This document shows, piece after piece, positions 41,558-44,621 of a DNA stretch of 64,000 bases (its first letter is position 1; each line of letters opens with the position of its first letter). The DNA lies in IMG/VR virus record IMGVR_UViG_3300031555_001876. One strand, given 5' to 3'. The position numbers were made by a program, and so were the translations under genes. The notes beneath the pieces were generated by a model. The model saw nothing but the letters and a program-made list of their open reading frames with translations. It did no database searches and was not told the DNA's origin. Source of the DNA: a virus.

Positions 41558-43306
41558 ATGTATAATCCTCTGTTGATGATTGATTTTTATAAGGCTACTC
41601 ACGCAGAACAATATCCAGAAGGAATGACAATGATTTATTCCCCTGGCACTCCTAGAATGTCTCGACTGAAAGATGTTAATGAAGTTGTTTATTTTGGCGG
41701 TCAGGCTTTCTGTAAGATGTTGATTCAGGCATTTGACGAACATTTCTTCAATCGATATGAAAGTGAAGTAGTGCGCGAATATAAACGTGTGCTCGACCAT
41801 ACTCTCGGCGTAGGTGCTTATAGCGTTGATAAGGTTGTTAATCTTCATAGACTTGGTTATCTGCCGATTGCGTTTTACGCTATCCCCGAGGGCACGAGTA
41901 CCAAGATTGGTACACCGCAGTCTGTGTTTGTAAACACCCATCCCGATTTCGCTTGGCTGACTAATACTTTGGAAACTATGTATTCTGCTTATATTTGGCA
42001 TATTCAAGTTTCCGCAGAAGTTGGTCGTAGATATCGTAAGTATGCTGAATATTGGGTTGAAAAGACCTGTGATGAAGATTATCGTGTAGCACGTCTGCTG
42101 AATGATTTCTCTATGCGCGGTCAGCATTGTCCTGAATCCGCAATCACTTCTTCCGCTGCTTGGCTGCTGTCCTTCCTTGGCACGGCAACTGTCCCCGCAA
42201 TTATGTGGCTGGAAGAAAATTATAATTGCGATATTGAAACCGAAGAAGTTGGCTACGGCGCAATTTCCACCGAACACTCTGTTATGTGTTCCAATTACGC
42301 AGTTGATGGTGATGAAATTACTCATATTAAGAGACTGCTGACTGAAATTTATCCTAATCATAGTTTCTCTATGGTAAGTGATTCTTATGACTATGAAAAT
42401 CTGGTCAAGAATATTCTGCCCCAGTGTAAGACTGAAATTATGAATCACAATGGTTGGCTTGGTATCCGTGGCGATTCCGGCGACCCTGTTGAGATTGTTG
42501 CTGGTTGGGAATATATTAAGATTGCCGACGAAGATGAATGGGGAGATTTTCTCGATGATAAAGACGGTTATCTTAGCGAATATTTTGATTACCCAAAGGA
42601 AAATGTAAAAGCCATTATCTCTTACAAGGATGCCTATTATAGAGTTGTATGCTCTCCTTATTGGAGCGAAGAGCGTGGCGCTTGGACTGATAGTGATTAT
42701 GATTTCATTGACCACTATGATGTAAATATGACTGGCCCCTTCAATTTTGAAGATATGAAAGTTGAAGAAATGGGTACTGTTTGGTGGCTGTATCACCACT
42801 TCGGTGGCACTATGAATAGCCTTGGTTATATTCAGTTGCCTGCTTATATTAAGGCTGTTTATGGTGATTCTATTACTCCTGACCGACTGAATGAGATTGG
42901 CCGCAGATTGCAGGTTAAGGGTTTTGCTATTAATAATGTTTCTCTTGGCGTTGGCTCTTTCTCTTTTATGTGTCTTGAAAATAAGGATTTTTATACCAAT
43001 GAAGTGAGTTATAGCCCTTATACTCGTGATACTTTCAGTTATGCTATTAAGGCTACTTATGGTGAAAATAAAGAATTTAAGCCTGTTTTTATTCAGAAAG
43101 AACCCAAAGCATTGTCTTGGAAGAAGTCTCCCAGAGGCTGTATTATTGTTGATAAGAATGGCGAATATACTGATGGTTGGACTTTCTATGAAGCACACAA
43201 TGATTATGTTGATAATCAGTTACAATTGGTTATGAAAAATGGTCATATTATTAGAGATATGAGCCTGGCTGAAATTCGTAGAAATATGTGGGGAGAGAAT
43301 TTTTAA
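41558..43306 (+). CDS. nadV: Nicotinamide phosphoribosyltransferase (NadV/NAMPT).
   Basis: ORF-track 41537..43306. ATG 41558 preferred (AAAGGA 10 nt upstream); ATG 41537 is too close to the promoter. PLLMIDFYKATH N-terminus is typical of NAMPT. GC is above the window average. Confidence 0.7.
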   Translation: MYNPLLMIDFYKATHAEQYPEGMTMIYSPGTPRMSRLKDVNEVVYFGGQAFCKMLIQAFDEHFFNRYESEVVREYKRVLDHTLGVGAYSVDKVVNLHRLGYLPIAFYAIPEGTSTKIGTPQSVFVNTHPDFAWLTNTLETMYSAYIWHIQVSAEVGRRYRKYAEYWVEKTCDEDYRVARLLNDFSMRGQHCPESAITSSAAWLLSFLGTATVPAIMWLEENYNCDIETEEVGYGAISTEHSVMCSNYAVDGDEITHIKRLLTEIYPNHSFSMVSDSYDYENLVKNILPQCKTEIMNHNGWLGIRGDSGDPVEIVAGWEYIKIADEDEWGDFLDDKDGYLSEYFDYPKENVKAIISYKDAYYRVVCSPYWSEERGAWTDSDYDFIDHYDVNMTGPFNFEDMKVEEMGTVWWLYHHFGGTMNSLGYIQLPAYIKAVYGDSITPDRLNEIGRRLQVKGFAINNVSLGVGSFSFMCLENKDFYTNEVSYSPYTRDTFSYAIKATYGENKEFKPVFIQKEPKALSWKKSPRGCIIVDKNGEYTDGWTFYEAHNDYVDNQLQLVMKNGHIIRDMSLAEIRRNMWGENF

Positions 43307-43764
43307 TGGCTCTTTATGTTAAGCAAGGAGATTTACTGATGACAGATGTAGATTATATCTGTCATCAAGTAAATTGTCAAGGTAAAATGAACTCTGGTAT
43401 TGCTAAAAGTATTAGAGAGAAATATCCAAAAACATATATCGATTATATGTTATGGTATGAACAAAATGGTAGTAATAAAATATTTAATCATATTTGTGTC
43501 ACTCCTATATCTAATAAAACAAGCGTTATTCATATGGCTTCACAATATGATTATGGATATGATGGTAAAAGATATACTTCTTATGATGCTTTTTGGAACT
43601 GTTTAAATGAGATTAAAAATACTATTCCAAAAGGTAGTAAAGTTGGATTCCCCGGAAATATTGGTTGCTATCGTGGCGGCGCAAACTGGAATGTAATTCT
43701 TGAAATGATTAAAGAAGTTTTGGTAGAAGATTTTGAAGTATATATTTATTTCTTGGAGGATTAA
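43306..43764 (+). CDS. Macro-domain protein (ADP-ribose binding/processing), 152 aa.
   Basis: ATG 43306 overlaps the nadV stop (TAATG) after GGGGAGAG. VDYICHQVNCQGKMNSGIAKSI matches the macro-domain glycine-rich motif. Confidence 0.55.
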   Translation: MALYVKQGDLLMTDVDYICHQVNCQGKMNSGIAKSIREKYPKTYIDYMLWYEQNGSNKIFNHICVTPISNKTSVIHMASQYDYGYDGKRYTSYDAFWNCLNEIKNTIPKGSKVGFPGNIGCYRGGANWNVILEMIKEVLVEDFEVYIYFLED

Positions 43765-43766
43765 TT

Positions 43767-44621
43767 ATGTATTATACATCTGCATTAAGCCGTTTTAAAG
43801 GCAAGAAATATACTATCGACCCTGATAAGGAAGTAGACTATATTATTAACTGGATTAAAGAACAATTTGCTATGTATGGTGAAAATACAAAAGCAGTAAT
43901 TGGAATGTCTGGTGGTAAGGATTCTACAATTGCGGCCGCACTCCTTAAAGAAGCGCTTGGTCCCGATAGAGTGGTCGGTGTAATTATGCCCGAAAATATT
44001 ATGAAGGATAAGGATTTGGCAAAGGTTATTTGCGACCATCTAAAAATCAAGACTTCTATTATTAACATCGGAGAAATTACTGAACGATTTTATGATGCTT
44101 ATTGTAGAGAACTGTATGATAATGACCCCGACGCAGATATTAGTATGGTTCTAACTAATACACCTGCGCGCATTCGTATGGCTATGCTCTATGCAGTTGC
44201 TTCTTCTTGCCACGGACGAGTAGTTGATACTTGTAATGCGAGTGAGATTTATGTTGGTTGGTCTACTAAATGGGGCGATGGTGCTGGTGATTTTGCCCTG
44301 TTCCACGATTATCCTGTTCGATATGTGAAAATGATTGGCTATGAACTGGCTAAGCGAGGAGTCATTCTTGAACATTGGGTAGATAAAATCCCAGATGATG
44401 GAATGTGCGGTTATAGCGATGAAGAAAAGTTTGGTTTTTCTTATGATGAACTAGATGATTATATGATTAACGGTATTACTCCCGATGTTGATAAATTAAC
44501 AAGAATAAAAAGTATGTATAAGCGAGGGCAGCATAAACAGTGCATTCGTCTTAACTGTCCGAGACTTCTTACCGAACACGAGGAGGATAAGGTATGGGTG
44601 CCGGAGATCGACCCGTGGTAA
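43767..44621 (+). CDS. nadE: NAD+ synthetase (NadE, PP-loop ATP pyrophosphatase).
   Basis: ORF-track ORF. GMSGGKDST PP-loop. GWSTKWGDGAGDFALFHDYPV and GFSYDELDDYM resemble NadE. Confidence 0.65.
   Translation: MYYTSALSRFKGKKYTIDPDKEVDYIINWIKEQFAMYGENTKAVIGMSGGKDSTIAAALLKEALGPDRVVGVIMPENIMKDKDLAKVICDHLKIKTSIINIGEITERFYDAYCRELYDNDPDADISMVLTNTPARIRMAMLYAVASSCHGRVVDTCNASEIYVGWSTKWGDGAGDFALFHDYPVRYVKMIGYELAKRGVILEHWVDKIPDDGMCGYSDEEKFGFSYDELDDYMINGITPDVDKLTRIKSMYKRGQHKQCIRLNCPRLLTEHEEDKVWVPEIDPW

Follow-up and report, generated by a model that had tools for sequence, protein, structure and literature searches.

We analyzed a 64,000-nucleotide stretch of viral DNA, IMG/VR record IMGVR_UViG_3300031555_001876 (hereafter the window), which is an AT-rich segment of a large tailed-phage genome and carries a putative NAD+ salvage operon. 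Three consecutive genes on the plus strand, at positions 41558–44621, encode a phosphoribosyltransferase (PRT), a macro-domain protein, and an NAD synthetase (NadE) (Table 1). The stop codon of the PRT gene and the start codon of the macro gene overlap in TAATG, and the ATG of NadE follows the macro stop codon after 2 nt, with a GGAGG within the end of the macro gene. For the PRT, a start at 41558 is favored over the ATG farther upstream at 41537: an AAAGGA ribosome-binding site precedes the former, and the gene as called in the relative L002 likewise encodes 582 amino acids. The original prediction for this locus, which was made from the letters of the DNA alone, had described the three genes as consecutive, coupled, and framed by a terminator and a promoter. 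This description was confirmed, and a second terminator ends the operon. In a comparison with a 90%-identical relative, the dN/dS values were 0.09 for the PRT, 0.32 for the macro protein, and 0.16 for NadE, indicating that all three genes are under purifying selection. A 90%-identical contig from pig gut has the same three-gene form as the window. A 556-amino-acid antisense open reading frame (ORF; 41528–43198, minus strand), unusually long for an AT-rich genome, covers nearly the whole PRT gene; given the strong homology of the sense PRT and its dN/dS of 0.09, this ORF was taken as non-coding.

The promoter of the operon is one of a real phage promoter family. The motif TTGATT-N14-TG-N-TATAAT had 11 plus-strand matches in the window, against 0.23 expected from shuffled sequences, and the consensus of the copies is TTGATTTTT..AAAAAA.ATG.TATAAT. 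The 11 copies (29 nt, with an A/T-rich spacer) are spread over positions 17715–63397 of the plus strand, often right after a terminator hairpin, and break up the non-structural region into short units that are transcribed independently. The operon promoter had been called early; the promoter itself stood, and its timing may be early, judging from nothing other than its sigma-70-like form.

NAD+ depletion is among the commonest antiviral strategies of bacteria. Phage pathways that reconstitute NAD+ (NARP1, NARP1-AP, NARP2, and NARP3) have already been described. NARP1 and NARP1-AP consist of Adps and Namat, with or without the macro phosphatase Adpp (Osterman et al., bioRxiv 10.1101/2024.02.11.579819; 10.64898/2026.01.28.702374). 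In NARP1, Namat couples nicotinamide to ADP-ribose pyrophosphate (ADPR-PP), and NARP2 pairs a NampT with a bifunctional Nmnat/Nudix protein, as in Vibrio phage KVP40. The window PRT matched PHROG 448, "nicotinamide phosphoribosyl transferase" (E 3.7e-143), and the Pfam families NAPRTase and NAMPT_N, and scored 358.6 bits against the NadV-type equivalog PRK09198 of NCBIfam, below the cut-off of 405. Among solved structures, it scored 335.7 bits to 9W5X/9W5W, which are structures of the SPβL1 Namat, and 98–102 bits to mammalian NAMPT. The 336 bits for Namat versus about 100 for NAMPT place the PRT in the Namat (NARP1) clade, not with the NampT of NARP2. The original prediction had read the gene as a NampT whose usual Nmnat partner was swapped for NadE and macro. 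The PRT does share with NARP2 the NAMPT fold and catalytic core (the autophosphorylated His, and the Arg and Asp at the PRPP site), with the His of STEHS, the Arg of DFSMRG, and IRGDSGD all invariant, as well as a supply of NAD+ during infection. However, it misses the NadV-type cut-off and has lost the Asp that determines base specificity, and no NMN adenylyltransferase or Nudix partner was found in a Pfam or PHROG scan of 47 ORFs of the window. The NampT assignment was therefore rejected. The PRT also contains an insert of about 87 amino acids after DSGDPVEIVAG (window 42509–42769; PRT residues ~318–404), which is common only to the 90%-identical L002; the Namat of phage phiPsa374 has an unrelated-looking insert at the same site.

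The core of the operon recurs as a viral cassette in about 130 related loci. The full cassette comprises a PncA nicotinamidase, an Adps-like kinase, the PRT, a macro or HAD-like protein, sometimes a NADAR protein, and NadE. In contigs with 54–90%-identical homologs, the gene order is an isochorismatase-family gene, a PRPS-like gene, the PRT, a macro homolog of 166–174 amino acids, NadE, and NADAR; in Phage Phass-1 it is nicotinamidase, PRPS-like gene, PRT, HAD-like protein, and NadE. NadE homologs number in the thousands. A scan of IMG/VR with the single NadE protein gave no match, and an alignment-based scan was needed, which returned at least 549 relatives, from which 80 loci were kept. The PRT lies directly upstream of NadE in 63 of these 80, and most also carry PncA, a PRPS-like gene, and a macro or HAD-like gene. 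As a control, 80 IMG/VR loci nearest the Namat of Staphylococcus phage SA5 were sampled; all were ordinary NARP1 loci (PRPS-like gene plus PRT), and none had NadE or PncA. The isochorismatase-family genes of the cassette match nicotinamidases best, and the metal ligands as well as the catalytic Asp and Cys line up. The PRPS-like proteins scored 95–112 bits to the Adps of NARP1, against no more than 56 bits for PRPP synthetases of solved structure, and they carry the Adps-type PP loop, DDICS(R/K)GGTF. The combination of genes in the window, which had been singled out as unusual, is thus a variant, yet no isolated case: it forms the core of a cassette seen again and again, usually together with PncA and an Adps-like kinase. 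A NADAR gene often adjoins NadE (21 of 61 NadE-linked loci; e.g., L004 8819–9256 and L007 8846–9283), with a gene for an NAD+-dependent DNA ligase nearby and, in L007, one of the PARP family as well; the window has none of these. One locus, L217, has PncA, NadE, and the PRT without an Adps-like gene.

The base-binding pocket of the PRT differs from that of Namat. In the Namat crystal structure, Asp215 hydrogen-bonds the amide of nicotinamide, and the D215A mutant yields 8.1-fold less NAD+ from nicotinamide. The equivalent human residue, Asp219, is reported to define the substrate specificity of NAMPT. Where Namat has SFTGTDTIPA, the window PRT has SFLGTATVPA, which puts Ala at the Asp215 site (FLGTATV), and Ser occupies the site of Ala242 (AISTEHS), another nicotinamide contact. 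These residues were compared between 61 non-redundant NadE-linked PRTs, in which NadE is present by selection, and 79 non-redundant canonical NARP1 PRTs. At the Asp215 site, the NadE-linked PRTs have Ala (41) or Ser (20) and never Asp, and PncA lies near 56 of them; the canonical PRTs have Asp (71) or Glu (8), with neither NadE nor PncA near any. At the Ala242 site, all 61 NadE-linked PRTs have Ser and all 79 canonical PRTs have Ala. The two sets share no residue in 7 of 458 alignment columns, of which 2 are the direct nicotinamide contacts Asp215 and Ala242 (P = 0.004) and 5 lie within 2 residues of a nicotinamide contact (P = 2e-5). The substitution at the Asp215 site is kept down to 34% identity among NadE-linked PRTs. 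A second sample, selected through the PRT, consisted of the 80 IMG/VR loci nearest the window PRT, two of which held only a PRT fragment and were unscored. Ala or Ser was found at 71 loci, 63 of them with NadE, and Asp at 7 loci, none with NadE; among the 8 Ala/Ser loci without NadE, 6 end less than 3.2 kb downstream of the PRT. From the loss of the amide-binding Asp and the gain of a Ser hydroxyl, the window PRT is predicted to be nicotinate specific. By analogy with the D215A mutant, which its natural state resembles, it would use nicotinamide poorly. In annotation, the two enzyme types can be told apart by position 215 of Namat (Asp versus Ala/Ser) combined with position 242 (Ala versus Ser). 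The Ala-type loci L201 and L220 carry an Adps-like gene and a macro gene along with the PRT but no NadE gene, and L220 also lacks PncA.

The PRT and NadE might instead act as two independent salvage boosters, with the PRT converting nicotinamide to NMN (nicotinamide mononucleotide) with PRPP (phosphoribosyl pyrophosphate), or to NAD+ with ADPR-PP, and NadE speeding the end step of the Preiss-Handler or de novo pathway of the host; neither product would then feed the other enzyme. Consistent with this, the NAMPT core retains its catalytic His, Arg, and Asp, Namat accepts PRPP plus nicotinamide in vitro, and the activity of D215A is lowered but not abolished. However, Asp is absent from the specificity site in the 61 and the 71 PRTs of the two samples, the differences specific to the NadE-linked group are concentrated in the base pocket, and the supposed substrate would be degraded by the nicotinamidase that the cassette encodes. 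We therefore consider independent boosters unlikely.

NadE belongs to the NAD synthetase family (Pfam NAD_synthase, E 7e-43) and is predicted to amidate deamido-NAD (NaAD) to NAD+. In searches with profile hidden Markov models (HMMs), which had been proposed for deciding between a NadE and an NMN synthetase, the protein scored 143.3 bits against the TIGR00552 nadE model, above the cut-off of 63.65, and 140 bits against the full-length equivalog PRK13980, below the cut-off of 255, so that it reached the family cut-off but not those of the full-length equivalogs. The catalytic residues, on which the original prediction had been made to depend, are present (the SGGKDS PP-loop, the Glu of the SE motif, and TKWGDGAGD), and SGGKDS, E160, and T167-K168-x-G170-D171 are invariant in 22 NadE homologs. 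The best solved relative is the NadE of Pyrococcus (P. horikoshii; 105 bits). The phage NadE falls into a short archaeal-like subgroup, alongside the NadE of M. jannaschii and the NMN synthetase of Francisella; the M. jannaschii enzyme is an NaAD-specific NAD synthetase without NMN synthetase activity. The gene context favors NaAD as the substrate of the phage NadE.

The macro protein scored 19.4 bits against Pfam Macro, under the cut-off of 22, and matched PHROG 335, "phosphatase" (E 8.7e-33). It aligns with the macro proteins inside NARP1 operons, among them the Thalassavirus ortholog of the assayed Adpp, with invariant motifs in common. Its identity is 38% to the macro protein of phiPsa374 and 27% to gp175 of Vibrio phage Quinn (E 4e-7), which is encoded between Adps and Namat; Quinn shares its genus with phage Gary. 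Adpp, the macro protein of the Gary NARP1 operon, dephosphorylates ADP-ribose (ADPR)-1''-phosphate and lets NARP1 overcome RES-type NADases. The window macro protein is thus predicted, from its family membership, to be an Adpp-like ADPR-1''-phosphate phosphatase. The original prediction had suggested that it could also remove defensive ADP-ribosylation; DarT-type modification of DNA or protein would be an example. Several matches point in that direction. The N terminus of the protein matches the DarG macro model (E 1.8e-10), and the family profile fits SCO6735 (6e-19), DarG (3e-17), and TARG1 (2.5e-16) better than Poa1p (3e-14), the best PDB match being BT1257 (4e-26). NADAR, a family of DNA de-ADP-ribosylases, is also a frequent neighbor in the cassette. 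However, the phage macro family has an invariant Gln where TARG1 (K84) and Thermus aquaticus DarG (K80) have the catalytic Lys, the same family occurs in NARP1 operons with one member proven to be an ADPR-1''-phosphate phosphatase, and an HAD-like, phosphatase-type protein fills the macro slot in other cassettes. Removal of ADP-ribosylation in place of a phosphatase activity is therefore quite unlikely. The identification of the protein as a DarG was rejected on the Gln and on a score of 40.6 bits to the DarG model, whose cut-off is 250, and the protein lacks the C-terminal DarT-binding domain of DarG. In the alignment of the macro proteins (A3), at window macro residues ~119–128, most NadE-linked members have IGC(D/Y/V)RGGANW and NARP1-linked members have IG(C/A)GL(A/G)GGDW; this systematic difference in the phosphate-binding loop could mean a different substrate. 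The HAD-like protein, of about 140 amino acids with an FDFDDT (DxDxT) motif and no Pfam match, takes the macro slot in both NadE-linked and canonical cassettes (Table 1) and may be an alternative phosphatase for phosphorylated ADPR species.

Taken together, these results make it rather likely that the operon is a reduced version, with three genes, of a cassette that is widespread in phages and restores NAD+ via the deamidated branch. In this scheme, nicotinamide released by NAD+-cleaving immunity would be converted to nicotinate, by PncA in the relatives and by a host enzyme for the window phage. Adps of the relatives would make ADPR-PP, and the PRT would couple nicotinate to this activated ribosyl donor, giving NaAD directly; with PRPP as the donor, it would make nicotinate mononucleotide (NaMN), which the host NadD would then adenylylate. 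NadE would amidate NaAD to NAD+ with ATP and ammonia, and the macro protein would turn ADPR-1''-phosphate, the product of RES-type NADases, into ADPR and so feed the pathway. A nicotinate/deamido-NAD route explains the presence of the NadE gene, since it gives the enzyme a direct role in amidating the nicotinate-derived product. Loss of the Asp and gain of a hydroxyl, next to a nicotinamidase and an NaAD amidase, are what a switch from nicotinamide to nicotinate would be expected to look like. Nicotinate specificity, the NaAD intermediate, the macro activity, and the counter-defense role are all inferred from sequence and gene context.

Several points weigh against this scheme, and the first concerns the missing partners and the ribosyl donor. 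Adps, PncA, NADAR, and the HAD-like protein are absent from the whole window by six-frame profile HMMs with filters off, for which the best match was NADAR at E 0.11 and 7.5 bits, and tblastn of the window with the Phass-1 proteins gave no significant Adps, PncA, NADAR, or HAD-like match. The window genes alone thus cannot run the full pathway. Either Adps sits outside the window, or the lineage of the window uses PRPP to make NaMN and relies on the host NadD. Exact-protein look-ups beyond the window ends retrieved only contigs of 2.5–3.8 kb for its DNA ligase, and its 522-amino-acid structural protein was unrecorded. The adenine clamp of the PRT bears on the same question. At the SCH motif (G-S-X-phi-X-phi-X-phi-T-R-D with aromatic X in Namat), the window PRT has GSFSF, a 15-amino-acid insert, and YTRD, and most NadE-linked PRTs have an insert of 9–25 amino acids in this helix, so that the choice between ADPR-PP and PRPP is uncertain even for full cassettes. 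The window PRT retains two of the residues that stack on adenine in Namat, the MSR Arg of the SCL and the first aromatic residue (GSF), whereas no position could be assigned to the third.

In a sub-variant of the deamidated scheme, the operon would therefore boost the Preiss-Handler pathway with PRPP as the donor: nicotinate and PRPP would give NaMN, the host NadD would make NaAD, and the phage NadE would finish NAD+, with no recycling of ADPR. The lack of Adps in 64 kb agrees with this, as nearly all relatives have Adps within about 5 kb of the PRT, unlike the window; so do the SCH insert of the window lineage, ranked as the longest, together with the lineage-specific 87-amino-acid insert, and the pncB-nadD-nadE clusters known from gut jumbo phages (PMC11662467). 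Conversely, the coupled Adpp-like macro gene under purifying selection is most easily understood if the pathway uses up ADPR, the PRT has kept the Arg and the aromatic residue with which the Namat clamp holds adenine, and Adps could lie outside the window. We regard the PRPP-dependent sub-variant as possible, with a probability clearly short of even.

Further points also weigh against the deamidated scheme. Nicotinate use is deduced from one specificity residue and the gene neighborhood, and the Ala-type loci L201 and L220 lack NadE despite 8 kb of downstream sequence. In a neighbor-joining tree, the NadE-linked PRTs form a single clade, so that the change from Asp to Ala/Ser is one inherited event with a later switch between Ala and Ser; a reading of the 61-versus-79 residue split as 61 independent events was rejected for this reason. 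In addition, the second-best solved relative of NadE is the Francisella tularensis NMN synthetase (3FIU; 88 bits), and NaMN instead of NaAD could be the substrate of the phage enzyme. In that case NadE would make NMN from NaMN, as NadE* does in Francisella, and a host NMN adenylyltransferase would finish NAD+. The short single-domain NadE subgroup shared by the two enzymes fits such a route. Against it stand the higher score of the Pyrococcus NadE, the strict NaAD specificity of the M. jannaschii enzyme in the same subgroup, the lack of an NMN adenylyltransferase (NadM type or other) among the scanned window ORFs, and the phage gene context, in which the Adps-like partner of full cassettes predicts NaAD directly. 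An NMN synthetase function is therefore very unlikely.

Compared with known systems, the deamidated scheme is closest to NARP1 and NARP1-AP. The window PRT falls in the Namat clade, an Adpp-family macro gene adjoins it, the Adps-like kinase of the relatives carries the Adps PP loop, and RNA-ligase genes are neighbors, as at the NARP1 loci of Thalassavirus and Otagovirus. It differs from NARP1 in the Ala at Asp215, the Ser at Ala242, and the SCH clamp insert of the window PRT, in the presence of NadE and usually PncA, neither of which was found in the 79 canonical loci, and in the absence of Adps from the window itself. With the Preiss-Handler pathway (PncA, PncB, NadD, and NadE), it would share the use of nicotinate and the final amidation of NaAD by NadE, and the cassettes of the relatives contain PncA. 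However, the PRT is of the NAMPT/Namat family and not a PncB, no NadD is encoded, and the Adps-like kinase of the relatives suggests that NaAD is formed in one step from ADPR-PP. A literature search, whose incomplete coverage is not proof of absence, found no description of the NadE/PncA cassette or of a Namat clade with Asp replaced by Ala/Ser, and the operon and cassette are apparently an undescribed NARP1 variant. A wider proposal is that the cassette constitutes a fourth, deamidated phage route to NAD+, in which a branch of Namat that became specific for nicotinate, through Ala/Ser in place of Asp215 and Ser in place of Ala242, forms deamido-NAD with ADPR-PP for NadE to amidate; PncA would channel nicotinamide into nicotinate, and the macro or HAD-like protein, sometimes with NADAR, would supply ADPR. 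To us the chances for and against this proposal appear equal. It would also make the cassette common in large gut phages, and the window a minimal PRT-macro-NadE form with either a distant Adps or a reversion to PRPP.

The general theme of the original prediction, a module akin to the phage pathways that reconstitute NAD+ against NAD+-depleting immunity, was borne out. The genes could also form an auxiliary metabolic set that supplies NAD+ for phage replication and is not specifically directed against defense. A survey of gut jumbo phages proposes independent NAD+ synthesis and use, and the NAD+-dependent DNA ligase and PARP-like genes beside the cassette of relatives fit with it. However, the DNA ligase of the window is of the ATP type, the closest characterized systems, NARP1 and NARP1-AP, are proven counter-defense systems, and an Adpp-like macro protein acts on a compound made specifically by immune NADases. 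Both roles could also coexist. A purely metabolic role thus has a small probability.

The known phage answers to NAD+ depletion (NARP1, NARP1-AP, NARP2, and NARP3) all run through amidated intermediates. If the nicotinate/NaAD branch is true, phages exploit the deamidated half of NAD+ metabolism too, and this would explain many phage nadE and pncA genes that lack an explanation. Such a branch would suit hosts, e.g., gut anaerobes, whose nicotinamidase rapidly removes the nicotinamide needed by NARP1. In addition, the PRT might be a naturally occurring catalyst for the one-step formation of NaAD and would then interest the biocatalysis field.

Table 1. Features of the operon and its surroundings in the window, and loci of relatives that encode the HAD-like protein
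Feature	Position	Strand	Remarks
Intrinsic terminator of upstream unit	41456–41495	+	18-pair stem, then T run
Sigma-70-type promoter, extended −10 (TTGATT-17-TATAAT, TG)	41497–41525	+	Member of 11-copy family
NAMPT-family PRT, Namat clade, 582 amino acids	41558–43306	+	PHROG, Pfam, NCBIfam, and PDB matches
Macro-domain protein, 152 amino acids, Adpp family (TARG1/DarG/Poa1p class)	43306–43764	+	PHROG, profile, and alignment
Single-domain (NH3-type) NAD synthetase NadE, 284 amino acids	43767–44621	+	Pfam, TIGR00552
Intrinsic terminator ending operon	44643–44674	+	3' of NadE
Next promoter, same type as that of operon	44676–44704	+	Directly after 44643–44674 terminator
RNA-repair-like set: RNA ligase with PHA02142 OB domain; NinI-like metallophosphatase; polynucleotide-kinase-like AAA_33 kinase; second phosphoesterase	39493–40767; 44731–45459; 45670–46209; 46528–47241		Around operon
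SPFH/Band 7 (flotillin-like) protein, long Ala/Glu/Lys-rich coiled coil	47260–48717		3' of RNA-repair genes
518-amino-acid protein, DUF2828 and DUF7788 domains	36450–38006		PHROG 850, "RNA-binding protein"
Two HNH/homing endonuclease genes	33281–34123; 38086–38859		Flanking DUF2828/DUF7788 protein
IceA-like nuclease	34184–34777		Just 5' of DUF2828/DUF7788 gene
DNA methyltransferase	34955–35497		Just 5' of DUF2828/DUF7788 gene
Suppressor tRNA, anticodon CTA (reads TAG)	18826–18900		Member of five-tRNA cluster
FDFDDT protein, ~140 amino acids, NadE-linked cassettes	L001 7561–7980; L012, L017, L023, L024, L052, L062		
FDFDDT protein, ~140 amino acids, canonical NARP1 loci	L095, L096, L098, L124, L136, L152, L153, L155, L161, L167		

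The window further contains structural genes, topoisomerase II, ligases, homing endonucleases, and five tRNAs. Megablast of the operon region against GenBank phages gave no match; the nearest GenBank relatives of the window are uncultured gut phages, with likeness at the protein level only. A set of RNA-repair-like genes surrounds the NAD operon, and a separate copy of the promoter precedes each of them. In Pseudomonas phage phiPsa374 and Vibrio phage Quinn, NARP1 likewise has RNA ligase genes beside it, and relatives add Thg1-like genes. A Band_7 gene, as is found 3' of the RNA-repair genes in the window, also lies 3' of NadE in the relative L002. Farther upstream, the gene for the DUF2828/DUF7788 protein is accompanied by nuclease and methyltransferase genes (Table 1).

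The genes of the NAD operon end in TAA stops and contain no in-frame TAG. The tRNA cluster of the window includes a suppressor tRNA, and readthrough of TAG would join many ORFs of the structural region into much longer ones (482–3394, 4419–7016, 8334–10202, 27814–30662, and others). The ORFs 482–1381 and 1826–3394 match successive parts of one PHROG profile. This suggests that TAG is recoded in the late genes of the window, as it is in the "code 15" clade, where Phass-1 has been placed.

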